A stretch of DNA of 64,000 nucleotides from an uncultured Ruegeria sp. (GCF_947497005.1 NZ_CANMFF010000004.1:252818-316817), one strand, 5' to 3'. Positions 5,752 to 18,635 are shown, counted from the stretch's first letter. Translations and numbers: made by a program. The notes: generated from the letters alone by a model not told the origin.

Positions 5752-5761
5752 TGACTCGTTA

Positions 5762-5803
5762 TGTATCCAAGTGTATACAAATGCACGCAATATACAAGTG
5801 TAC
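5762..5803. promoter_or_regulatory. Putative GntR operator(s)
   Basis: Palindrome TGTATACA at 5772-5779 and a TATACAA repeat at 5774 and 5791, directly upstream of the gntR start. Confidence 0.55.
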
Positions 5804-5808
5804 GCGCT

Positions 5809-6489
5809 ATGACCGTCCAGGACGACCCAATACAGCCCGGCCCACAAGGCAATTCCGCGTATCAGCGCATGCTGGAGCAGATCCGCGACGGCACGCTCTT
5901 GCCTGGCGATCGCTTGCGCGAGATCGAGCTGTCTGAACGCTTGGGTGTCAGCCGCACACCAATCCGCGAAGCGATCCGACAGCTTGAAGCGGACGGGCTG
6001 GTAATGCATGTGCCAAGGCTGGGCGCAACGGTCCGCAGCCTCGACTACGCTGAAGTGATGGAGCTTTATGAGATGCGTGCCGTGCTTGAAGGCACCGCTG
6101 CGCGGTTGGCGGCACGGGCAGCCTCGGATGTTGAACTTGATGAGTTGGAAGTTTTAAATGATCGGCTGGCTGAGGCCGGCACAGGTCCGGATGCAGCTCG
6201 AATCAACCGGATTTTTCACGCCACTTTGCTGGATGCAGCCAAGAACCGGTTTCTGGCGAAGTCCATGCTGTCCCTGCAAAAGGCGCTGCTGATCCTTGGG
6301 CCGTCACAGCTGTTGGACAGTGATCGGGCAGAAACTGCAGTGGTCGAACATCGGCACATCATGGCTGCCCTGAAATCGCGCGACGGTGCCGCAGCAGAAA
6401 CCGAAATGCGCGCGCATATCCAGGCGGCCCAACGCATGCGCATCCGCGCGCTGCAGGAACGTGACCGCACAAGCGATCAGAGCCAGTAG
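5809..6489 (+). CDS. GntR/FCD family transcriptional regulator
   Basis: wHTH LPGDRLREIELSERLGVSRTPIREA followed by an FCD domain (NRIFHATL, EHRHIM). Start placed at ATG 5809. Confidence 0.93.
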   Translation: MTVQDDPIQPGPQGNSAYQRMLEQIRDGTLLPGDRLREIELSERLGVSRTPIREAIRQLEADGLVMHVPRLGATVRSLDYAEVMELYEMRAVLEGTAARLAARAASDVELDELEVLNDRLAEAGTGPDAARINRIFHATLLDAAKNRFLAKSMLSLQKALLILGPSQLLDSDRAETAVVEHRHIMAALKSRDGAAAETEMRAHIQAAQRMRIRALQERDRTSDQSQ

Positions 6490-6500
6490 GACCACGTTAC

Positions 6501-7895
6501 ATGGCCGCTCAAATGGAATTGTATGATATCGCGGTGATCGGAGGGGGTAACGCGGCCCTATGTGCGGCAATGACAGCTGCCGAAGCGGGTGCGAAGGTCC
6601 TGATCCTGGAAACCGCGCCAAAACCGTATCGCGGGGGAAACTCACGTCACACGCGCAACTTTCGCTGTATGCACACAGGTCCTCTGGGCCCATTGGTCGA
6701 GGAGTACAGCGAAGATGAATACCTGTCCGACTTGCTGAAAGTCACGGGTGGCAAGACTGACGAACGCCTGGCACGTTTGGCGATCCGAACCTCGGAAGAT
6801 TGCTTGCCGTGGATGGAAGAGCACGGGGTCCGCTTCCAACCGTCTCTTTCAGGTACTTTGTCCCTTGCTCGGACCAATGCGTTTTTCATGGGGGGCGGCA
6901 AATCTCTGGTGAATGCCTATTACCGGACGGCCGCCGGGTTGGGTGTCGACGTCCGGTACGAAGCCGCAGTCACGCATCTGGAGCTGAATGGTGATCAGAT
7001 CGAATGGGTCGATTTCACCTATGCGGGGCAAGAACATCGCGTCTCTCCCAAGGCAGTTATTGTCGCCTCGGGCGGGTTTCAGGCCGATACCGATTGGCTG
7101 ACCCGCGCCTGGGGCGAACCTGCAAAGAACTTCCTGATCCGCGGCACGCCGTACAACCGAGGTGTGGTGTTGGCCGACCTTCTGGATCAAGGCATTGAGC
7201 GCGTCGGCGATCCAACCCAGTGCCACGCCGTTGCCATCGACGGGCGTGCGCCCAAATTCGATGGCGGGATTGTCACCCGTCTGGACTGCGTTCCGTTTTC
7301 CATTGTCGTGAACAAAGAAGCCGAGCGGTTCTATGACGAGGGCGAAGATGTCTGGCCCAAGCGCTATGCGATCTGGGGACGTCTGGTGGCGGCCCAGCCG
7401 GATCAGGTGGGCTACGTGATCATCGATAGCAAATCACTGAACCTGTTCATGCCGTCAGTATTCCCGCCGCTTAAGGCGGGTACGCTGGAGGAACTGGCGG
7501 CGCTGATGGGCCTGTCGCCCGACAAATTGACGGCGACCGTCACCGAGTTCAATGCTGCGTGCGGTGATACCGGCGGGTTTCACCCGACTGAACTGGATGG
7601 GGTAGCCACTTCGGACCTTAGTCCACCCAAATCCAACTGGGCGCGCCCGATCACCGAGCCGCCTTTCTACGGGTATTTGTTACGAACCGGTGTGACGTTT
7701 ACGTATCTGGGCCTGAAAGTCGACGACACGGCACAGTGCTCAACCGCCTCAGGCAAGATCAAAAACCTCTGGGCTGCCGGGGAAACCATGGCCGGCTCGA
7801 TCCTTGGACAGGGCTATCTGGCGGGCTTCGGCATGACTATCGGGACCGTCTTCGGTCGCATCGCAGGGCGCGAGGCCGCCGCCTATGCAAGCTGA
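6501..7895 (+). CDS. tcuA: FAD-dependent tricarballylate dehydrogenase
   Basis: VIGGGNAALCAA, RGGNSRHTRN, DGGIVTRLDC, GYLAGFGMTIG; adjacent to tcuB. Confidence 0.92.
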   Translation: MAAQMELYDIAVIGGGNAALCAAMTAAEAGAKVLILETAPKPYRGGNSRHTRNFRCMHTGPLGPLVEEYSEDEYLSDLLKVTGGKTDERLARLAIRTSEDCLPWMEEHGVRFQPSLSGTLSLARTNAFFMGGGKSLVNAYYRTAAGLGVDVRYEAAVTHLELNGDQIEWVDFTYAGQEHRVSPKAVIVASGGFQADTDWLTRAWGEPAKNFLIRGTPYNRGVVLADLLDQGIERVGDPTQCHAVAIDGRAPKFDGGIVTRLDCVPFSIVVNKEAERFYDEGEDVWPKRYAIWGRLVAAQPDQVGYVIIDSKSLNLFMPSVFPPLKAGTLEELAALMGLSPDKLTATVTEFNAACGDTGGFHPTELDGVATSDLSPPKSNWARPITEPPFYGYLLRTGVTFTYLGLKVDDTAQCSTASGKIKNLWAAGETMAGSILGQGYLAGFGMTIGTVFGRIAGREAAAYAS

Positions 7896-8952
7896 CCTGA
7901 TACAAGAAGCGCGCCGTCAGGCCGAGATCTGCAATGCATGCCGCTATTGCGAAGGCTATTGCTCGGTCTTTCCGTCGCTTAATGCCGAACGCGCGTTTTC
8001 GGACGGTGCAATAACGCAACTGGCAAATCTCTGCCACAACTGCCGGGGGTGTTACTATGCCTGCCAGTACACGGCTCCGCACGAGTTCGACCTCAATCTA
8101 CCGAAAGCTTTGGCTGAAGTGCGACGTGATAGCTGGGAAAGCTTTGCCTGGCCGCAGCCACTGGCGCGCCGATTTCACACGCATGGTGGTGCCATAGCTT
8201 TGGCGCTTATGATCGGGTTTGCGCTGCTGTTCTGGGCCGTTCGCGTCATTGGATCCAGCGGAGGGGAGGGTTTCTACGCCGTCCTGTCGCATAATGCGAT
8301 GGTCGCGATCTTCGCCCCTGCGTTTGTGCTGCCGCTCTTTAGTATATTCCTCAGCCTAAGGCGCTATTGGGTTAAGGTTGGCGGCAAACCTCTCCAAGTG
8401 GCTGACGTGACGGCTGCTTTCAAACGCGCTGGTCAAATGCAGGATCTCGCCGCAGGGCACGGTGAGGGCTGTAATTTCGAGGACGAAGACCGCTTTAGCC
8501 AGGCGCGACGTCACACTCACCAAACCATCATGTATGGATTCCTGCTGTGCTTTGCGTCGACCTCGATCGCGACTGTTTTGCATTACGGCTTCGGAATGCA
8601 TGCGCCCTACGGGTTATGGTCATTGCCCAAGCTGTTCGGGATTTCTGGTGGTGTTTTGCTGACGGTGGGTTGCGGCACCATGGTGTACCTTAAACAAAAA
8701 TCTGACCGTGATCTCGGTGACCCTGCTGCATGGGGAGGTGATATCGGTTTTATCCTGCTGCTTGGGTTTGTTGGGCTGAGCGGGCTTGTTCTCTACGTCC
8801 TCGGCTCATCTGCATTGATGCCTGCACTGCTTGCCATCCATTTGGGTTCGGTTCTGACATTCTTCTTGCTCACTCCCTATACCAAGATGGCTCATGGGTT
8901 TTATCGCCTCGCCGCACTCGTTCGGGATGCCCAACGGAAAAGAGGCATGTGA
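7885..8952 (+). CDS. tcuB: Tricarballylate utilization 4Fe-4S membrane protein
   Basis: CNACRYCEGYC and CHNCRGCYYAC clusters followed by multiple TM helices; overlaps the tcuA stop. Confidence 0.92.
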   Translation: MQADLIQEARRQAEICNACRYCEGYCSVFPSLNAERAFSDGAITQLANLCHNCRGCYYACQYTAPHEFDLNLPKALAEVRRDSWESFAWPQPLARRFHTHGGAIALALMIGFALLFWAVRVIGSSGGEGFYAVLSHNAMVAIFAPAFVLPLFSIFLSLRRYWVKVGGKPLQVADVTAAFKRAGQMQDLAAGHGEGCNFEDEDRFSQARRHTHQTIMYGFLLCFASTSIATVLHYGFGMHAPYGLWSLPKLFGISGGVLLTVGCGTMVYLKQKSDRDLGDPAAWGGDIGFILLLGFVGLSGLVLYVLGSSALMPALLAIHLGSVLTFFLLTPYTKMAHGFYRLAALVRDAQRKRGM

Positions 8953-9723: not shown

Positions 9724-10782
9724 CTAATTGTCGAAGCTAATGCTCAGTTCATCTGAGGTAGCGACACTCTGGCAGGATAGTATTTCTCCGCGGGTGACAT
9801 CGCTGTCTTCAAGTGCCATTCGAGCATGCATATGGACCTGTCCCTTTGTTAGACGCGCTTTGCAGGCGCCGCATACTCCGGACTGGCAACTGAAAGGTGG
9901 CGTCAAGCCAGCCGCCAGTATCGCATTCAGTAGGGTTTGATCTGCAGAAACAGGAACCTCGTATGTCGACCCTCCCAGATTAACTTGTGCTTTGGCGGCG
10001 ATACCCGTCACGCTGGAAGCTGTCATTGTAGCCCCTCCGAAGCTTTCCATATGAATTCGGTTCGCAGGTACATCCAGTGCCATCAGCGCGTTGCTCACGT
10101 CCTTATTCATAGCTCCGGGTCCGCAAATCCAGTATTGGACATCTTGCGCCACAGGTGGGGTTTCCGTCACGGCGATCTTTATGGCTTCGGCATCCACGCG
10201 GCCTTTTCGCCATGGGCTTATCCAACTCCACAGCGAGGGTGCCGACAGGACATGGCGCAATGTGAACCGGGCGGCATGCTCAATTTTCAATTTGTCCAGT
10301 TCTTTGCCAAAGATAGTGCTTTCGCCATCGGCGTTGCCATAAATCAGATGAGCCACTGAATGAGTTTCTTCTTTGAGGACAGCGTTGATCATTGCGAATA
10401 GCGGCGTGATGCCACTGCCTGCACCAAAGAAATAGTGGGTGCGACGTTTCAGTGGATCCGGCGTCAGGGAGAACTGACCGAATGGCGGCATGACGTCGAC
10501 CATATCGCCGGGCTTTAGGTGGTCTCCGATATGATTGGACACAAGCCCACCGGCGACCCGTTTTACCGTGATACGCAGAGGGGCACCTGGTGGGTTGGAA
10601 ATGGTGTAGCTGCGACGTTGCTCTTTCTCGTTGAAATGGAATCGCAGAGTGACATGCTGACCGGCTTGCCAGCAAAAGGTTTCTGCCAGATTGGTCGGTG
10701 TATCAAAGGTCACGCTTGTGGCTTTGCCTTTAATCTCAGGCCGGATTTCAGAAACTTTCAGGGAAAAGAAATCTGGGTTCAT
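9724..10782 (-). CDS. Ferredoxin-NAD(P)H reductase with C-terminal 2Fe-2S domain (PaaE/KshB type)
   Basis: RRSYTIS, GLVSNH, GAGSGITP, CGPGAM, PFSCQSGVCGAC...LSCQ. ATG 10782 follows a GAGGA RBS. Confidence 0.92.
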   Translation of the reverse strand: MNPDFFSLKVSEIRPEIKGKATSVTFDTPTNLAETFCWQAGQHVTLRFHFNEKEQRRSYTISNPPGAPLRITVKRVAGGLVSNHIGDHLKPGDMVDVMPPFGQFSLTPDPLKRRTHYFFGAGSGITPLFAMINAVLKEETHSVAHLIYGNADGESTIFGKELDKLKIEHAARFTLRHVLSAPSLWSWISPWRKGRVDAEAIKIAVTETPPVAQDVQYWICGPGAMNKDVSNALMALDVPANRIHMESFGGATMTASSVTGIAAKAQVNLGGSTYEVPVSADQTLLNAILAAGLTPPFSCQSGVCGACKARLTKGQVHMHARMALEDSDVTRGEILSCQSVATSDELSISFDN

Positions 10783-10789
10783 GGTTTCC

Positions 10790-11275
10790 TCAACGATAAT
10801 CAAACGTGGTGTCAAGAGCTCGGATTGCCAGCCGACCAGCTTGGGGGACGATGAAAAAACTGTCCGTCTGGTTCATCGTTCCAGTTGTGTCGTCCCAGAT
10901 GTAATCGACACGTGTCTTGGCGATGACACGCGTGCCGCCGTCGGTGAATTCCGAGGAAATCCTGGGCGCCTCGCGCCTCGTTTCACTGTATCCCTGCATC
11001 GCGTCGGCCAATGTGGGATCCTGATGCCAATCAGGAAGTGTTTCCCAATCGGCCACCGGATAGGAAAACTTCTCATCTGGCTGCCCCAGCCCGAATTTGA
11101 TTGTGACGGTATGCACCGCCTTCGGGTGCCAGTCTTTCCACGTCGCAGCGATTGCTGCCTCTTCTGTTGCATTGAGATAGCGCGCCGCCAAGTCCTTGGG
11201 TTCGTCTGACGGGCTGGCCAAGACCAGTCCAGTTGCCAGGATCGTACCGATAAAGGTTGCAAAAATGCGTTTCAT
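10790..11275 (-). CDS. Hypothetical exported protein (possible NTF2/SnoaL-like fold)
   Basis: 161 aa; signal-peptide-like MKRIFATFIGTILATGLVLA. The helix-then-strands pattern suggests NTF2-like (inference). Confidence 0.75.
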   Translation of the reverse strand: MKRIFATFIGTILATGLVLASPSDEPKDLAARYLNATEEAAIAATWKDWHPKAVHTVTIKFGLGQPDEKFSYPVADWETLPDWHQDPTLADAMQGYSETRREAPRISSEFTDGGTRVIAKTRVDYIWDDTTGTMNQTDSFFIVPQAGRLAIRALDTTFDYR

Positions 11276-11359
11276 TTACTTTCCAAATTCAGCGTAGCGG
11301 AGGGAGTTGTACGAACAAGCAATTGAAGGAGCGATTCGATATTGACCCAAGGCATCTGG

Positions 11360-12523
11360 CTAAGTTCCGGCCTCTTGTGTCTCGAGGAAGTCCAGGATTG
11401 CTTGTTGGTGTCTGACAACCGGGCTTTCTCCGTTGGCGGCAGGGCCGACCTCAAAATACGGGCTGGTCAAAGACTTTTGCTGTTGTTCACAGGCGTAAAT
11501 ATCCTCGGCTGTGAAATCACCTGACGCCATTGGATCATCTTCGCTGATTGCGTCGCTGTCGGGATATTTCGGGCCGCCGAAATCCTTCCAGAAACTCCAA
11601 CTGCTCCATTCCTGTTTCTGAAACTCCCACCCTGAGGCATTCGCCAGCTTGGTGCGGTTTTCCACGCGCGTCAGATCAGGCCCCAAGGGCGTGATAATGA
11701 AGATGTTCCAGCTATCTTCGCCCGCGCCAAGCCCTATACCGGGAAACAGCATTGGCACCCAGGCCCCAATATGGGGTTCCGGTATTGCCCGCGGTGTAGG
11801 CAGGTTTTTCTCCAAATCCTTTGCATAATCAGGCGCCGGCGGTTCCCAGAAGTGATAATGCGGACCTTTCCAGCCGTATTCCGCCCGCGCATGATCATAC
11901 ATGTGGAGCGTGTTGGAATGAAGATGGCTCAGGTGATAGACGTCGATATAATTCTCGACCACGATCTTCCAGTTGGCCTTGATCTCATAGCTTTGCCGCG
12001 CATCGGGATATTCCACCAGCTCTTCCGGTTTGTGTGGTCCCAACAGCGGATCAACCGCACCGAACCACTCAACAAGGCTGGGCGGATTTGGATCAGGATG
12101 CACAAAAAGCATACCACGCCAGATATCGACACTGGCGGGTTTCAAGCCGAGGCAGGATTTGTCGACCCCATTGGGATACTCCTTTGCTTCATCGGGAATA
12201 GAAATCAGGTTGCCCTCGAGGTCGTATGTCCAGTCATGGTAGGGGCACGTCAGCGCCTTTTGCGTTTTCCCGACAGCCCGGATCAACTGTGTACCACGGT
12301 GACGGCAGATGTTATGAAATGCCCGCAGACGGTGATCGCGCCCCATCACGATAAAGATGTTGTTCAGCCCGGCCTGTATCGACACAAAATGACCGGGCTC
12401 CGGCACATCCTCGGCCAAACCTGCGTAGCGCCAGGTGCGTGAAAAAACCTGCCTTTGTTCGCGCTCAAACCAATCTTGGGACGTATAGGCGTCAACGGGA
12501 AGGCGGTGGTACATTCGGGTCAT
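11360..12523 (-). CDS. Rieske non-heme iron oxygenase alpha subunit (choline monooxygenase/CntA/GbcA-like group)
   Basis: Rieske motif CRHRG...CPYHDW; mononuclear Fe motif ENYIDVYHLSHLH and EDIYACE. Confidence 0.92.
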   Translation of the reverse strand: MTRMYHRLPVDAYTSQDWFEREQRQVFSRTWRYAGLAEDVPEPGHFVSIQAGLNNIFIVMGRDHRLRAFHNICRHRGTQLIRAVGKTQKALTCPYHDWTYDLEGNLISIPDEAKEYPNGVDKSCLGLKPASVDIWRGMLFVHPDPNPPSLVEWFGAVDPLLGPHKPEELVEYPDARQSYEIKANWKIVVENYIDVYHLSHLHSNTLHMYDHARAEYGWKGPHYHFWEPPAPDYAKDLEKNLPTPRAIPEPHIGAWVPMLFPGIGLGAGEDSWNIFIITPLGPDLTRVENRTKLANASGWEFQKQEWSSWSFWKDFGGPKYPDSDAISEDDPMASGDFTAEDIYACEQQQKSLTSPYFEVGPAANGESPVVRHQQAILDFLETQEAGT

Positions 12524-12532
12524 GGCAACCTC

Positions 12533-12796
12533 TTAAACAAGCCAGATGGCATAGGAGGGAAACAGGCTGGCCGCGATCATCATCAGGCCGAATACAGCCC
12601 AAAGGATCGCTACTGCCCAGAAAAGGATCGGATCGTGTTCGCGCGAGATATCAAATACAAGTGCAGTCTGGCCCGTCATAATCGATGGCACCAACCACCA
12701 CAGAAACAGCAGACCCCAAACCCAGTAGAGCCCCAGTACAGCCGCAACCAAAAGAACTGGCAAAGCCATGTAATTGACAAGGCGCTGGGTGCTCAT
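12533..12796 (-). CDS. Small hydrophobic membrane protein (87 aa)
   Basis: Two to three hydrophobic Trp-rich segments. Start overlaps the TetR stop (ATGA); 9 bp before the Rieske gene. Confidence 0.75.
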   Translation of the reverse strand: MSTQRLVNYMALPVLLVAAVLGLYWVWGLLFLWWLVPSIMTGQTALVFDISREHDPILFWAVAILWAVFGLMMIAASLFPSYAIWLV

Positions 12797-13383
12797 ACGG
12801 TCGCCTCCAGGCTGGCGGCAAGGATCGTTGCAGCCTGTTTCAGCTCTTCGCGCCAGACCTCTGGCGGATTAAGCGGGGTCAGAGAATCCAGGTTCACATA
12901 TGTCGCAGAAATCCCCTGCGAAACCGCGCGTATATGGGCAGCAGGGGCGTTCGGGGAGGCCCGTTTCAACACGGCTTCGATCACCTCAAAAAACTCTTCC
13001 AAGCTATCGACGAGGGGCTGTCGCATTGACGGGTGATCAGCGACGGATGTGACAAGCGACTGGTAGGCCAGCATTACGCGCGGATCATTGGGGACAGATT
13101 TATCAAACAGCAGGTCGATCAGATCAGCTGTCGTGCCCGTTGGTTCCAACGCGCCCCGAAGGGCGGTTGTCGCCTGTGCAAACCTGTCTACGACATGGTT
13201 TATAAGGGCCCCGGTCATCTGGTCCTTGTTACCTAAATAGTGGCGCAGGATGGGTCGTTTGACCCCGGCCTCAGCTGCGACGCGCTCTTGGGTTGCCCCC
13301 TCCAATCCGAAACGGGACACACAGGTGAGATATGCATCAAGAATCTGTTCTGATCGCTGGTCTTTAAGACTGGGACGGGGCAT
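12793..13383 (-). CDS. TetR family regulator (BetI-like N-terminus)
   Basis: MPRPSLKDQRSEQILDA...GATQERVAAEAGVKRPILRHYLGNKDQM HTH. Confidence 0.9.
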   Translation of the reverse strand: MPRPSLKDQRSEQILDAYLTCVSRFGLEGATQERVAAEAGVKRPILRHYLGNKDQMTGALINHVVDRFAQATTALRGALEPTGTTADLIDLLFDKSVPNDPRVMLAYQSLVTSVADHPSMRQPLVDSLEEFFEVIEAVLKRASPNAPAAHIRAVSQGISATYVNLDSLTPLNPPEVWREELKQAATILAASLEATV

Positions 13384-13398
13384 CGTTTCTCTCGTTTA

Positions 13399-13449
13399 TT
13401 GTCACATCTGACAAATAACTATTCAAAGTATATTGTCAATAATGACAAT
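13399..13449. promoter_or_regulatory. Two TTGTCA-N4-TGACAA palindromes, putative TetR operators
   Basis: TTGTCA-catc-TGACAA at 13399-13414 and ATTGTCA-ataa-TGACAAT at 13432-13449, 34 bp apart in an AT-rich region just upstream of tetR. Confidence 0.75.
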
Positions 13450-13496: not shown

Positions 13497-14603
13497 TCAA
13501 TGCACTAAGGTTTCAGCGTTTGTTGCCGCTTCCGGTATCTTTCGCCGCATTGAATCGGTGTCGACTTCAAGATTGCCAAATAGTTTTCCGGCCCAATGGA
13601 CGGCCCCGGATGTCAAAAGAAAAACCTCTGGCACCACAATCCACTCGCCGATCCAGACACCGCCGGAACGCTCGTGCTGGTGCAAGGTCAATTCGCCAAT
13701 CTGCTCGGCGCGTTGGCGTCCCAGTCTTCCGACAGCCTCGCCAAACTCGGACGCCCGTTGGTTCTGTTTATGCGCCATTGCAGATGAGGCGCCTCGACCC
13801 GTTTCATGAGTTTCAGTAATTTCGGCGATGTCCGTTGAGGACAACAAATTCACGTTGTGTGAGATCTTGCAGATCGTCGCGCAAAGCGCGCCAAGCGCCG
13901 TCACGATGTCTGATATTCCATCCCTTGCATTTTGCCAGTGTGGGTCTACGACCCTCAGTCCCAACGCCTGTGCAACAGCCCGTTTGATCTGTGGACCATC
14001 GTCTTTGTCGTACCCCCGCAAATCTCCAACCGGCCCTCCAATCTGAACGTTCAACCCTCGCTTTGCGGCGTCGTCGATTGCTTTCTGGCGACGCGACAAT
14101 TCAGACCTCCAAACCTGCAATTTGGTAGCGAAGCAGATTGGCACGGCGTGCTGACCGTTGGTGCGCCCGATCATCATTGTGCCCCGGTGTTGGTCCATAT
14201 GGCTTTCCAAAATCGCGGCAAGCCGCTGCAATTTCAGTTCGATCTCTTCGAGCCCGGCCTTCATTTGCATCGCAAGAGCCGTGTCCATGATGTCTTGCGT
14301 CGTTGCACGGAAGTGAAAGTATTTCGCATGATCGCCAAGCGCTTTACGCATCTGCTGAATAAGCCCAACGATAGGTCGACCCACAGTCAGCATGTCTGAT
14401 TGCATTTGATCCTTGTCGAGCATCTGGGGCGACAAAGCCTCAATCGCACGGGCTGCATCGCTGGGAATAAGCCCCGCCTCGGCCTGACATCGAGCCAGGG
14501 TTTGCTCGACCTTCAGCCAGGCTGAGATCGTGCTGTGTTCTGACCAGATAACCCGCATGTCGAGGGTCGAGAAACAGTCGCGGTAAAGACCAAACTCAAG
14601 CAT
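13497..14603 (-). CDS. Fumarase/aspartase-superfamily lyase (adenylosuccinate lyase/PcaB-like, short form)
   Basis: HFRATTQDIMDT, GRTNGQHA, SSAMAHKQN, HQHERSGGVW. ATG 14603 overlaps the tctA stop. Confidence 0.85.
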   Translation of the reverse strand: MLEFGLYRDCFSTLDMRVIWSEHSTISAWLKVEQTLARCQAEAGLIPSDAARAIEALSPQMLDKDQMQSDMLTVGRPIVGLIQQMRKALGDHAKYFHFRATTQDIMDTALAMQMKAGLEEIELKLQRLAAILESHMDQHRGTMMIGRTNGQHAVPICFATKLQVWRSELSRRQKAIDDAAKRGLNVQIGGPVGDLRGYDKDDGPQIKRAVAQALGLRVVDPHWQNARDGISDIVTALGALCATICKISHNVNLLSSTDIAEITETHETGRGASSAMAHKQNQRASEFGEAVGRLGRQRAEQIGELTLHQHERSGGVWIGEWIVVPEVFLLTSGAVHWAGKLFGNLEVDTDSMRRKIPEAATNAETLVH

Positions 14604-16110
14604 CACCCAGCCCCCCCGGCGCAAGCTTTCGGTCTTTTAGGACACCCCGGACACGGAACGCTATCGCGCCTGCACCGATGATTATGAAAGCCAGCGCGAT
14701 TGGACGCTCGACAAATATCAGAGCGCCCCCATCCGACATCAAGAGCGATTGACGAAATGTCTCTTCAGCCCCTTTTGCCAGCACAAATGAGATAACGAAG
14801 GCGGCTATGTTGAAGTCGTGCTTTCGCATCAACCAACCAACAAACCCCGCCACGGTCATCACGGTCACATCAAACATCGACCCACTTGCAGAGTAGGCGG
14901 CGACAAAGGCGGTCATGAAGATCATCGGATAGAGGACGTTGGTCGGGATTTTCAGAATTAGCCGAGCGACTTGTGTCGCCCCGAAATAGCCGATCAAGCC
15001 ATACGCAATGATCCCCAGCATGCCGCAAGCGAACAGCTTATAGACCAATTCCTTGTCCGTCAGAAAAAGTGTTGGTCCAACCTGAATGCCATGGATCAGG
15101 AAGACACCAAGTAGGATGGCGCCAATGGTCGACCCGGGTATTCCTAGCGTTAACAGTGGTGCCATCGAAGGGCCGGACACCGCATTATTTGCCGCTTCGG
15201 GTGCGGCAACACCTTCCAACGCGCCTTTGCCCCATTGTTCAGGGTTTTTCGCCCGGCGTTTCCCTTCACCGTAGGATATGAAAGCCGCAATTGCTGAGCC
15301 CAGCCCTGGCAAGACACCAATACCTGCGCCGATGAATCCACCGCGCAAGGCGTGCGGCAGGCAAGGTTTGTATTCTTCCCAAGTCAGATTATTCCCGTCT
15401 TGTGTGCTGTCGTTCTCTTTGGTCTCTCCCTGGGTTTTCCGGCGCTCTTCTAGCTGGGCAAACACTTCGCCCAAAACAAATACACCGATCATCAGGGGAA
15501 CGAGACCGATACCGTTGGACAGGTCAAAAGAACCGAAAGTGTAGCGTTCTTCGCTCGAAATCGGATCAAGCCCAACCATGGCGACCAAAATGCCCATCAG
15601 GGCCGAGGCCAACCCCTTGACTATGGATTTACCGATGACCGATCCGATCACAACGAAGGCGGCAAAGTAGATTGCGAAGGTTTCCGGCGGCCCCAGTTTC
15701 AATGCGATGGACGCAATGAACCCAACACCAATGACCAACAGGATATCACCCATCATGTCGCCAATAATCGACGAAATAGTGGCGACCTTCATCGCCTTGC
15801 CCGCTTTGCCTGCGCGGGCCAGCGGATAGCCATCGATCTGCGTGGCAGCACTGGCGGCTGTGCCCGGAGTGTTGAACAGAATGGCCGCAATAGACCCACC
15901 ATAGCGCCCGGATTTTCCAATCACGTAAAGAAACGCCAAGGCGAAAAGGGGCGACATATAGAAAGTGATCGGCAACAGCATTGCGATCGCGGCTGATGCG
16001 GTCAAACCGGGGGTCGCACCCACGATCATGCCAACAAACGCTGCCAATACGATGGCGAAAAGCAGCATCGGATCTGTAATCACGGAAAGAAGAGCGGGAA
16101 AGATTTCCAT
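14596..16110 (-). CDS. tctA: Tripartite tricarboxylate transporter large permease
   Basis: GATPGLTASAAIA, NTPGTAASAATQIDGYP, GVAAPEAANNA, LTLGIPGS. Confidence 0.93.
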   Translation of the reverse strand: MEIFPALLSVITDPMLLFAIVLAAFVGMIVGATPGLTASAAIAMLLPITFYMSPLFALAFLYVIGKSGRYGGSIAAILFNTPGTAASAATQIDGYPLARAGKAGKAMKVATISSIIGDMMGDILLVIGVGFIASIALKLGPPETFAIYFAAFVVIGSVIGKSIVKGLASALMGILVAMVGLDPISSEERYTFGSFDLSNGIGLVPLMIGVFVLGEVFAQLEERRKTQGETKENDSTQDGNNLTWEEYKPCLPHALRGGFIGAGIGVLPGLGSAIAAFISYGEGKRRAKNPEQWGKGALEGVAAPEAANNAVSGPSMAPLLTLGIPGSTIGAILLGVFLIHGIQVGPTLFLTDKELVYKLFACGMLGIIAYGLIGYFGATQVARLILKIPTNVLYPMIFMTAFVAAYSASGSMFDVTVMTVAGFVGWLMRKHDFNIAAFVISFVLAKGAEETFRQSLLMSDGGALIFVERPIALAFIIIGAGAIAFRVRGVLKDRKLAPGGLGDA

Positions 16111-16116
16111 AATTTG

Positions 16117-16584
16117 TTACCCCTGAATCCAGTTCAGCAGATCAAAGACCTCGCCGTAGGGTGGGAATACGCCGAGCAGCACGAAGAAGATGACGTGAAA
16201 GACCAGCGGGCACAGAACGACTGACAGCGCCAATCCAATCCGACTACGGACGCCGAAAATGTAGAGAATCAGCGGAGCAACAATCGCGGTCGGAACAAGA
16301 TATCCGAACCATCGGAAAGATTGCTGATAGATCAGCGCAATGATGAAAAGACCGACTATCTCCAGCGTGGCCCCATTGTCAGGTTCGCTTTGTGCTTCAC
16401 CTGCGCTCTGACGCGTGGCCCCAATGATTAGGAACCCGGACAGAGCAAGCAGCGCAACAGCAGCAGCAAAAGGTACAATGCCTGCCCATGTATCACCGGG
16501 CGAGGCCGCTGGCACTTGCCAGGCACCCCAGATGGCAACACATGAAATGGCTGTCAGAACAAGACCTTCGACATAAGTACGCAT
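16117..16584 (-). CDS. tctB: Tripartite tricarboxylate transporter small permease
   Basis: About four TM helices, lying between tctC and tctA; ATG 16584 follows a GGAGGG RBS. Confidence 0.85.
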   Translation of the reverse strand: MRTYVEGLVLTAISCVAIWGAWQVPAASPGDTWAGIVPFAAAVALLALSGFLIIGATRQSAGEAQSEPDNGATLEIVGLFIIALIYQQSFRWFGYLVPTAIVAPLILYIFGVRSRIGLALSVVLCPLVFHVIFFVLLGVFPPYGEVFDLLNWIQG

Positions 16585-16654
16585 AATTCCCTCCGTCACA
16601 CATTGGTCGTTGAGAAAGATCGGGTGGCGATATCGCCACCCGATCCTGTCAGTC

Positions 16655-17614
16655 TCAGTTCGTCAGGCTTTCCACCAAAGGTGCGGCGTCCTCTTTCATT
16701 GCCGACAGAGTTGCCTTGGCATCTGCACCGCTCTGATAAACCGGGCCGGTCCCGCGTGAGGCCAGAAGTTCGGCAAACTCGGGTTTCGCTACGATTTGTT
16801 CCAGCGCGGCTTCCATCGCCGTAACCACCTCGGGTGGCGTATCCTTTGGCGCGAACACAATCACCGGGGACGAAACTGCGGCAAAAGGTATTCCGAGCTC
16901 ACCAAAGGAAGGCACATCCTTCATGATGCCATCACGGTCCTGACTGTTGACCGCCAATGCACGCAGCTGGTCTTCAAATCCCGCCAGTTGCTGTACACCA
17001 AGGAAGCCGAAGTCCGCCTGTTCGCCGATCAGTGCTGCACGGGTTGGTCCGCCACCTTTGAATGGTACATCCTGTGCCTCGATGCCGTTGCCGGCCAGAA
17101 AGCCCATACCACCGACATGGTGAAAACCGCCGCGTCCCGAATGCGCCCAACGGAGCGATCCTGGGTCAGCTTTTGCTGCATCGATTATGTCTTGTACGTT
17201 TTCGAATGGGCTATCCTTTGGCACCATCAGCGATGTCTGTAACTGACCGACCTGAGCGACAAATTTGAAACTGTCCAGCGCGTCAATGTCTGTGTCCCGC
17301 GTCATGGTCGACAAAAGAAACGACCCGCCCGACGTCATCATCATCGTGTATCCATCTGGACGTGCACCCACAACAGAGTTGGCGCCGTTCAAACCACCTG
17401 AGCCGGGCTTGTTTACAACAACGACTGGTACATCCAAAACGCCTTCAGCTGCCGCCGAGATGGCGCGGGCATAGGCATCTGTGCCACCACCCGCCTTGTA
17501 TGGCACGATCAAGTTGATAGGGCGCTTAGGCCAGTCAGCGGCAAAGCTGGCTGTGGCTGAAGTGGCTACGGCAATGGCGGCAATGGCCGTGTTTAGTAGT
17601 GTTCTACGTTTCAT
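16655..17614 (-). CDS. tctC: Tripartite tricarboxylate transporter substrate-binding protein (Bug/TctC)
   Basis: Signal peptide MKRRTLL...SFA; WPKRPINLIVPYKAGGGTD, VVVNKPGSGG, VPFKGGG. Confidence 0.93.
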   Translation of the reverse strand: MKRRTLLNTAIAAIAVATSATASFAADWPKRPINLIVPYKAGGGTDAYARAISAAAEGVLDVPVVVVNKPGSGGLNGANSVVGARPDGYTMMMTSGGSFLLSTMTRDTDIDALDSFKFVAQVGQLQTSLMVPKDSPFENVQDIIDAAKADPGSLRWAHSGRGGFHHVGGMGFLAGNGIEAQDVPFKGGGPTRAALIGEQADFGFLGVQQLAGFEDQLRALAVNSQDRDGIMKDVPSFGELGIPFAAVSSPVIVFAPKDTPPEVVTAMEAALEQIVAKPEFAELLASRGTGPVYQSGADAKATLSAMKEDAAPLVESLTN

Positions 17615-17659
17615 TGGGTCCTCCCATAAGCTCGACCCTAAACTATCCAAGTTTGGGAA

Positions 17660-17704
17660 TTGATAAAAATGCAAAGATCGTATCTACTCTTGCAAAAAAT
17701 GAAA
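17660..17704. promoter_or_regulatory. Candidate LysR T-N11-A sites
   Basis: TTGATAAAAATGCAA (17660-17674) and TTGCAAAAAATGAAA (17690-17704) in the divergent tctC/lysR gap. Confidence 0.4.
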
Positions 17705-17714
17705 GCCAGCAGCG

Positions 17715-18635
17715 ATGAACATCAAAGCCTTGCGCGCTTTTAGTATCACTTTGTCCGAAGGCTCTCTGATTGCCGCATCGGAAATCCTGCACCTGAGCCA
17801 GCCTGCTGTCAGCCGATTGATATCGGGATTGGAAGCAGAACTAAGACTTACACTATTTGATCGAAGCGGCCGCAACCTTACACCTACGCCGGAAGGGTTT
17901 GCCTTCTACCGCGAGGCAGGGCGAATTCTGGAAAATCTGGATGAAGTGCCGAGGATCGCGGCGGAAATTCGTGCTGGGCGAACGGAATCACTACGTATTG
18001 TCACGATGCCCAGAATTGCACAAACCTTGTCGGCCCGCGCAGTAGCAAGGTTTTTCAAAGAACATTCCAACATCAACATCAGCCTGGATGTCCGGGCGCG
18101 GCGCGAAGCTGGAAAGTGGTTAGCAGGGCGCGAATACGACATCGGTATTGGAGCATTGCCCGTTGAACATCCGGGAATTCGCACACAACCGTTATTGAGA
18201 GTTAGGGCGCAGGCGATATTGCCTGCTGATCACAGACTTGCCAAGCGACAGGAACTCGCAGCGACCGAGCTTGTGAATGAACCTATCATCCGTTTGATGC
18301 AGGGATTGTTACTTCGAGACCAACTGGATGATATCTTTCATTCCGCTGGCGTATCTCCTGGCCAGTCTTGCGAAGTTGCATCTTCCCAACTGGCTTGCTC
18401 GCTTGTTGCGGAAGGGGCGGGCATCACAATCGCAGATGAATTGGTCTCAGCTCAGATTGGTCTTGAAAACTTGATCCTGGTGCCGGTTGTTCCCGAAAAA
18501 TGGATGACATTCGGGTTGTTGTACCCCGTCTCGCAGGACAGAACTGAAGCTCTTTGCCGCTTTGAAACAGTTTTGCGGGACGTGGTTCAGGAACTGGCAG
18601 GTCAAAGCCCAACCTTGGAAGTGGCCCTGGATTAA
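17715..18635 (+). CDS. LysR family transcriptional regulator
   Basis: HTH GSLIAASEILHLSQPAVSRLISGLEAEL; divergent from tctC. Confidence 0.93.
   Translation: MNIKALRAFSITLSEGSLIAASEILHLSQPAVSRLISGLEAELRLTLFDRSGRNLTPTPEGFAFYREAGRILENLDEVPRIAAEIRAGRTESLRIVTMPRIAQTLSARAVARFFKEHSNINISLDVRARREAGKWLAGREYDIGIGALPVEHPGIRTQPLLRVRAQAILPADHRLAKRQELAATELVNEPIIRLMQGLLLRDQLDDIFHSAGVSPGQSCEVASSQLACSLVAEGAGITIADELVSAQIGLENLILVPVVPEKWMTFGLLYPVSQDRTEALCRFETVLRDVVQELAGQSPTLEVALD

Follow-up and report, generated by a model that had tools for sequence, protein, structure and literature searches.

A Rieske oxygenase operon with a conserved small membrane protein in Ruegeria and distant bacteria

Introduction

The carnitine monooxygenase CntAB of Acinetobacter (group Va), the glycine betaine monooxygenase GbcAB/BmoAB and the stachydrine demethylase Stc2 (both group Vb) are Rieske oxygenase systems built on an alpha subunit alone, and so is the 3-ketosteroid 9-alpha-hydroxylase KshAB, whose substrate is lipophilic and which stands under TetR-type control (KstR). 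The prevailing picture of Rieske oxygenases is one of soluble systems with two or three components. The plant and cyanobacterial enzymes PAO, Tic55 and CAO, which also act on lipophilic substrates, are held at the membrane by transmembrane helices. Here we analyse a five-gene operon in a 64,000-nucleotide stretch of DNA from an uncultured Ruegeria sp. (GCF_947497005.1, NZ_CANMFF010000004.1:252818-316817; hereafter the window). The operon encodes a TetR-family protein, an 87-residue membrane protein (m87), a Rieske alpha subunit, a 161-residue exported protein (p161) and a reductase.

CntAB is the best match in both sequence and fold, and it shares with the window the combination of an alpha-only oxygenase with one flavin/2Fe-2S reductase. 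The two differ in that identity is only 20–23% over the fold, the window alpha subunit has a bridging Asp instead of Glu and lacks a Cys-X-X-Cys pair, and the window module adds a TetR regulator and a small, conserved partner protein in the membrane, neither of which is, to our knowledge, part of CntAB. The group Vb enzymes are likewise alpha-only, with folds that compare at TM-scores of about 0.67–0.70, but they have Asn where the window family has Tyr or Phe, and the genome of the window holds four separate alpha paralogues that are 31–37% identical. KshAB is similar in pairing an alpha-only oxygenase with an FNR/2Fe-2S reductase; however, its alpha subunit is very distant (expectation value, E, of about 1e-7), has another type of C-terminal domain and comes without a membrane subunit. 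The membrane anchors of PAO, Tic55 and CAO are part of the same polypeptide and unrelated in sequence, whereas that of the window is a separate protein, fused to the oxygenase only in rare relatives such as P0308. Finally, GyrI-like/Cass2 and VOC proteins are linked to the locus through the shared m87 module alone and are not encoded in the window. Membership in the BetI, CntA, GbcA, PaaE and KshA families was rejected, as all scores fell below the cut-offs.

The operon is of a known kind, a Rieske oxygenase with its reductase, and its undescribed membrane module is the most interesting part: the literature yielded no description of this module, of a small membrane protein that partners a Rieske oxygenase, or of GyrI-like proteins anchored in a membrane. 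On balance we lean, by a narrow measure, towards reading the locus as a mobile, TetR-repressed three-component Rieske monooxygenase, the alpha subunit of which would be held at, or fed from, the membrane by m87 and would act on a membrane-partitioning compound.

Results and discussion

The membrane protein m87 is conserved with the oxygenase

To assess synteny, each of the five proteins of the operon was searched for by tblastn in the best 80 loci. The m87 gene lies directly 5' of the alpha gene in 74 of the 79 informative loci, with −4 to 32 nt between the two; these loci belong to Pseudomonadota, Acidobacteriota, Rhodothermota, Gemmatimonadota and Thermodesulfobacteriota. In three loci m87 is displaced or truncated. 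The reductase gene is found 3' of alpha in 78 of 80 loci, directly or behind accessory genes, and a tetR homologue adjoins the module in 66 of 80, being divergent in loci of Hoeflea, Rhizobiaceae and Arenicellales. Pairwise identities correlate with those of alpha for m87 (r = 0.83), the reductase (r = 0.76) and TetR (r = 0.84). The genes tetR, m87, alpha and reductase thus form a core that is inherited as a unit. An earlier, sequence-only reading of this DNA had placed both small proteins beside the oxygenase as partners; this holds for m87, which is conserved across phyla and even found fused to a Rieske protein, and fails for p161, which is confined to a roseobacter clade. In two Ruegeria loci (L038 and L042), at least 2.6 kb separate tetR–m87 from alpha, which suggests an insertion or rearrangement within the module.

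The m87 protein is strongly hydrophobic, with a basic N-terminal tail and an acidic central loop. Across 33 diverse copies, W27, G28, W60 and W66 are invariant, and F31, W34, G42, R52, P56 and L58 are nearly so. Neither m87 nor p161 matches a family in Pfam or NCBIfam; among the 33 m87 members there were scattered weak DUF matches in these collections, and a profile search of the PDB gave nothing meaningful. When 1.84 billion representative proteins were searched with an m87 profile, 400 relatives were found at E ≤ 1e-3 and 245 at E ≤ 1e-10, mostly of 75–135 residues. A spurious open reading frame (ORF) or a leader peptide is ruled out by these 400 matches together with amino-acid conservation across phyla.

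About 34 of the best 150 m87 relatives are fusion proteins. In fusions with GyrI-like/Cass2 domains m87 is N-terminal (10 of 10 tested fit this order), and three of those tested fall into a class of 461–476 residues, long enough for two such domains. In the VOC fusions, one or two glyoxalase/bleomycin-resistance-type domains are followed by a C-terminal m87 (6 of 6 tested), and one radical SAM enzyme is also followed by m87. GyrI-like and bleomycin-resistance proteins typically bind or modify drugs and lipophilic cations. In P0308, a Rieske alpha domain is followed by a linker of about 45 residues and then by m87. As this order is the reverse of that in the operon, the fusion is no read-through artefact, and it lends Rosetta-stone support to the idea that m87 and a Rieske alpha subunit associate physically. 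P0261, P0244 and P0332 represent the fusions together with P0308 and about 30 more; in a further class of about 200 residues (P0287, P0292 and P0362), the N-terminal part has no Pfam match.

Because cytoplasmic-type domains are fused at either end, and because the tail is basic and the loop acidic, we infer that m87 is a two-helix hairpin with both termini in the cytoplasm and the conserved loop outside. Judged by its fusion partners, m87 may be read as a membrane tether or portal for cytoplasmic domains that handle small molecules, and in the operon it probably pins the oxygenase to the inner membrane.

The alpha subunit resembles group Va oxygenases in part

In the alpha subunit (Pfam domains Rieske and Ring_hydroxyl_A), the Rieske motif C73-x-H75-x17-C93-x2-H96 is intact (PF00355, 65.7 bits against a cut-off of 20.3), and all 46 sequences compared share the iron motif D194-x2-H197-x4-H202 without variation (PF00848, 78 bits). 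The third iron ligand is probably D341, since the F337–D341 spacing equals that of F319–D323 in CntA. Among proteins of solved structure, the best sequence match is CntA (E of 1.5e-31, covering residues 9–255 only), followed by several aromatic dioxygenases. An AlphaFold2 model of alpha, with a predicted local distance difference test (pLDDT) score of 79 and one of five models confident, has its closest folds in CntA, the Silicibacter protein TM1040_3219 and Stc2 (TM-scores 0.64–0.70 at 20–23% identity), and their lead over the aromatic dioxygenases is slight. The top NCBIfam match is the GbcA model (NF058607), at 132.5 bits against an equivalog cut-off of 670.

Of the 46 orthologues, 41 have Tyr and 5 have Phe at position 192, which corresponds to Tyr203 of CntA and stands in an N-[Y/F]-x-[D/E]-x-Y-H context spaced as in CntA. 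The aromatic Tyr203 of CntA makes a pi-cation contact and marks clade Va, to which the benzalkonium oxygenase OxyBAC and plant choline monooxygenase belong as well (PMC7948474); a Cys-X-X-Cys pair lies beside the iron in some members of group V (PMC10952381). Alpha thus shares its architecture and one diagnostic residue with group Va, and is a member of no characterised family. These results uphold the suggestion of the sequence-only reading that the operon encodes an alpha-only Rieske monooxygenase with two redox components under a TetR repressor; the close orthology of alpha to a characterised enzyme that would have spoken against that reading is absent, as the distances to CntA and GbcA indicate.

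The alpha orthogroup is isolated at an identity of at least 69%: the best 120 of 989 clusters (90% identity level) are 69–86% identical to alpha, the 989 having been collected at E of 1e-30 or better and including remoter Rieske homologues. The next-best plasmid-borne homologue is less than 30% identical. The best 120 all have generic database labels; the orthogroup goes by 'aromatic ring-hydroxylating dioxygenase', 'biphenyl/naphthalene dioxygenase' and 'SRPBCC family protein', and the gene context, which contains neither a beta subunit nor ring-cleavage genes, does not bear these names out.

Putative operators, repressor and reductase

The five co-oriented genes, the gaps of −4, 9, 84 and 7 nt between them and the twin palindromes, all reported at first sight of the sequence, are borne out, and no convincing intrinsic terminator was found within the operon. 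The palindrome pair sits 16–65 nt 5' of the tetR ATG, and its distal member contains a TTGACA hexamer. Allowing up to one mismatch, the palindrome has four matches in the window against 0.23 expected, and none of 100 shuffles reaches four. An exact copy was found again in 53 of 92 loci, including those of other phyla (Thermodesulfobacteriota and Dadabacteria metagenome-assembled genomes). Where its position was checked, it lies 5' of tetR or, if tetR is divergent, directly before m87.

The tetR product contains TetR_N (PF00440, 23.5 bits, just below the cut-off of 24) and TetR_C_31 (24 bits), and ten NCBIfam TetR models match it. Its domains and the conserved palindromic operator predicted at its own promoter mark it as a TetR-family repressor. 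The likeness to the choline sensor BetI that had been raised for it turned out to be weak: NCBIfam BetI models score 45.9 and 45.7 bits against equivalog cut-offs of 118 and 201.3, and they match only the N-terminal half of the protein, which includes the DNA-binding domain (residues 1–98 and 2–118).

The reductase consists of FNR-type FAD and NAD(P) domains followed by a C-terminal plant-type 2Fe-2S domain (FAD_binding_6, NAD_binding_1 and Fer2, in that order). The PaaE model (TIGR02160) has the identical domain order and scores 282.4 bits, below its cut-off of 420.8. Starting at an alternative TTG at 10815 would make the reductase longer, but the gene would then overlap p161.

Distribution and mobility

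Among 185,579 species, each represented by one genome, at least 441 encode a relative of alpha. The alpha tree has three well-supported clades in which phyla are mixed: one of roseobacters, Hoeflea and other Rhizobiaceae; one of Granulosicoccaceae, Arenicellales and Thiotrichaceae; and one of Acidobacteriota, Rhodothermota, Gemmatimonadota, Chloroflexota and Thermodesulfobacteriota/Dadabacteria. Several non-proteobacterial copies lie on contigs of 2–5 Mb, so binning errors cannot account for all of them. Within Ruegeria, 44 of 70 species carry the alpha gene, always as a single copy and of either clade A or clade C, while a sample of the family with one genome per genus has it in 1 of 200 other genera. 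From its sequence distribution the module appears to be a horizontally moving accessory, and plasmid-borne spread would fit. Neither catabolic enzymes nor transporters were found as neighbours that recur with the module from phylum to phylum; a CN_hydrolase neighbour appeared twice and was treated as chance. The carriers are mostly marine, and many are named after or were isolated from invertebrates (squid, ascidians, molluscs and corals), so that the substrate may be an ecologically interesting metabolite of hosts or algae.

Several individual copies deserve mention. In the one other genus of the family sample (G151, C32:37778-38932), the alpha gene has an in-frame TAG and may be a pseudogene. 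Ruegeria sp. AD91A and THAF33 (NZ_CP031947.1 and NZ_CP045385.1) carry the module on replicons of 743 and 811 kb (megaplasmids), and on a metagenomic contig (L003:1-3450) it adjoins repABC-type replication/partition genes.

p161 and other envelope accessories

Homologues of p161 share a Sec-type signal peptide, including a conserved Ala-x-Ala before the mature part. The AlphaFold2 model of p161 (pLDDT 83.4, residues 1–22 disordered) gave 36 Foldseek matches at E ≤ 1e-3 (NTF2-like proteins at about 1e-4), nearly all of them NTF2-like, SnoaL or ketosteroid-isomerase-like, and the predicted fold is accordingly NTF2-like, an alpha-plus-beta cone. The gene is present in 28 of 80 loci, and all clear matches belong to roseobacter clade A; the outliers are a weak, broken match at L050 and a homologue of about 20% identity at L067. 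Contrary to what had been supposed, the exported protein is therefore no constant partner of the oxygenase. It is most simply seen as an optional, clade-restricted accessory, perhaps a periplasmic ligand-binding protein.

Other lineages have other envelope proteins. A PF13748 (ABC_membrane_3) gene lies directly 3' of alpha in 13 of the 80 loci, in 11 of them before p161, and the 84-nt spacer of the window is the position that this gene holds elsewhere; in the family at large PF13748 is rare (3 of 81 genera). In clade C roseobacters, 14 loci have a DUF2141 protein with a signal peptide before tetR, and six clade C loci also have a 178-residue multi-pass membrane protein after the reductase. Elsewhere in the genome of the window (contig C13:24700-31000; L096:6729-12998), a divergent TetR gene faces genes for a membrane-fusion protein, an AcrB-type resistance-nodulation-division (RND) pump, a DUF2141 protein and a PF13748 paralogue.

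A proposed function and its alternatives

In the model that we narrowly favour, m87 would hold an alpha trimer at the inner face of the inner membrane, or feed alpha from the membrane. Electrons would pass from NAD(P)H to the reductase flavin, its 2Fe-2S cluster, the Rieske cluster and the mononuclear iron, and the enzyme would hydroxylate or oxidatively dealkylate a membrane-partitioning compound that itself releases TetR from the operators. Its role would be one-step detoxification or scavenging, with no full catabolic pathway. The proteins p161, PF13748, DUF2141 and the 178-residue membrane protein would be interchangeable, lineage-specific envelope accessories, which could plausibly serve to bind or transport the compound within the membrane or periplasm. 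The envelope accessories, the absence of follow-up enzymes, control by TetR, the patchy distribution, the fusion partners of m87 and the group Va aromatic residue all fit this model, and none of them names the substrate. The most likely substrate is amphiphilic and membrane-partitioning, perhaps cationic; between the quaternary-amine and lipophilic substrates considered at the outset, the evidence leans to such an amphiphilic compound.

A broader and more tentative proposal, which we consider less likely than not, is that m87 is a new, widespread module of two transmembrane helices (400 or more clusters at 50% identity) that might serve as a portal, handing membrane-dissolved compounds to Rieske, GyrI-like/Cass2, VOC and radical SAM domains. 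The operon would then stand for a class of Rieske monooxygenase that is new in having three components and working close to the membrane; it would have spread horizontally among marine and host-associated bacteria and would neutralise a natural amphiphilic, possibly quaternary-ammonium compound. A conserved, dedicated small membrane subunit, if true, would change thinking about substrate access in these enzymes as well as their expression for biocatalysis. For annotation, the oxygenase, present in at least 441 species, bears names that its gene context does not support, and m87 is labelled 'hypothetical'. In addition, m87 marks membrane-tethered GyrI-like and bleomycin-resistance-type proteins, which may matter for drug or toxin tolerance.

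Several observations weigh against the membrane-proximal model and its assumed role. The core is not complete everywhere, as m87 is wholly absent at L063 and L076 and the reductase is missing at L083 and L084. Only one Rieske–m87 fusion was seen, and the alpha part of this protein, P0308, is 36% identical to the window alpha in its N-terminal half and belongs to a different family. The cytoplasmic tails of stand-alone m87 are only about 8 residues long, so that non-covalent docking of alpha stays conjectural, and the invariant tryptophans and conserved outer loop suggest that m87 may have a job beyond anchoring. In alpha, the Cys-X-X-Cys pair and bridging Glu of group V are replaced by V195, L198 and a bridging Asp194. 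The link to efflux is a hint at most, because the RND association comes from one genome and two other PF13748 loci had unrelated neighbours. Lastly, the neighbouring operon upstream of tetR, which encodes a lyase and a TctCBA transporter next to a divergent LysR gene, would agree better with the use of a carboxylate as a nutrient than with detoxification. This operon had been overlooked when the Rieske operon was said to have no ordinary transporter, and it co-occurs with the module in Ruegeria.

The neighbouring operon is central to an alternative that we regard as unlikely, though far from negligible, in which TctCBA imports a small polar metabolite from marine hosts, either betaine-like or a carboxylate, which is demethylated or cleaved as by CntAB and GbcAB and processed further by the lyase, with m87 minor or unrelated. 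The closest folds and sequences are indeed those of quaternary-ammonium oxygenases, the group Va aromatic residue is conserved, and many carriers come from marine invertebrates, going by their names. About 12 roseobacter loci from both alpha clades have the LysR-TctCBA-lyase operon beside the module, at L044 with no tetR between, and 28 of 29 lyase-bearing Ruegeria species carry the alpha gene too, in many cases unlinked to the lyase or on another contig (Fisher's test, p = 3e-7, a value that overstates the link because related species are not independent). Yet 16 Ruegeria species have alpha and no lyase, no locus outside the roseobacters shows the link, and no transporter or downstream enzyme accompanies the module across phyla; m87, its fusions and the envelope accessories are also left unexplained. 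The TctCBA-lyase operon is thus possibly a functional partner, outside the core. If the substrate were instead endogenous, that is, if the cell's own membrane lipids, quinones or pigments were hydroxylated or desaturated while TetR sensed the lipid state (compare DesT and DesCB), the membrane-protein partner and accessory genes that all encode envelope proteins would be accounted for. The order of reductase domains, FNR and then 2Fe-2S, would also agree with this, and the DesC reductase seems similar in domain order. In Sphingomonadales, DUF2141 is co-located with the carotenoid hydroxylase gene crtG (PMC5989583). We nevertheless consider endogenous envelope chemistry improbable: patchy, strain-variable transfer across phyla would be unusual for housekeeping lipid chemistry, the module is unlinked to lipid or pigment biosynthesis genes, and the GyrI-like and bleomycin-resistance-type fusion partners of m87 point to foreign small molecules.

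Two further alternatives concern the small proteins. m87 might be a partner of TetR, as a membrane sensor or anti-repressor, and not of the oxygenase; the end of tetR and the start of m87 share 4 nt here, as they do in most roseobacter loci, and the identities of both proteins track alpha. This is very improbable in our view, because m87 stays directly 5' of alpha where no tetR is adjacent (Acidobacteriota, Rhodothermota, Gemmatimonadota and Granulosicoccaceae) and where tetR is divergent, and because its fusions join enzyme or ligand-binding domains and no DNA-binding ones. Even harder to credit is an aromatic ring-hydroxylating dioxygenase of the classical type, in which p161 would be the beta subunit in diverged form, in spite of the database names, the place of the p161 gene after alpha and an NTF2-like fold shared with beta subunits, one of which (8h2t_A) is listed in 25th place amid generic NTF2 folds. 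The role of beta subunit is ruled out for p161 by its conserved Sec signal peptide and its absence from 52 of 80 loci; p161 also lacks a match to Ring_hydroxyl_B (PF00866), and dihydrodiol dehydrogenase and ring-cleavage genes are absent nearby.

Feature coordinates and neighbouring genes

Table 1. Features of the operon and its surroundings, in window coordinates
Feature	Position	Strand	Length	Description
tetR	13383-12793	minus	196 aa	Stop overlaps m87 start by 4 nt
m87	12796-12533	minus	87 aa	Integral membrane protein
Rieske alpha	12523-11360	minus	387 aa	Non-haem-iron oxygenase, alpha-only
Spacer alpha-p161	11276-11359	minus	84 nt	
p161	11275-10790	minus	161 aa	Exported, NTF2-like (predicted fold)
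Reductase	10782-9724	minus	352 aa	Length from ATG
Twin operators (putative)	13399-13414 and 13433-13448			TTGTCA-N4-TGACAA, exact, centres 34 bp apart
Lyase, TctA, TctB, TctC operon	13497-18635	minus		Immediately upstream of tetR
LysR gene		plus		Divergent from the lyase-TctCBA operon
GntR-type regulator, then TcuA, TcuB	5761-8952			Separate cassette 3' of the reductase

The lyase of the neighbouring operon has 368 residues and is PcaB/adenylosuccinate-lyase-like; it scores below all NCBIfam cut-offs, the best models being XcbD and PcaB at about 253 bits. Three Ruegeria genomes (G237, G211 and G220) have lyase homologues of 59–61% identity, each with a single in-frame TGA, and in G233 a lyase gene with four stops, likely a pseudogene, lies beside the alpha gene. 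In the cassette on the other side of the operon, TcuA corresponds to tricarballylate dehydrogenase and TcuB to its 4Fe-4S partner; each exceeds its TIGRFAM equivalog cut-off, and TcuB falls below the PRK15033 subfamily cut-off.

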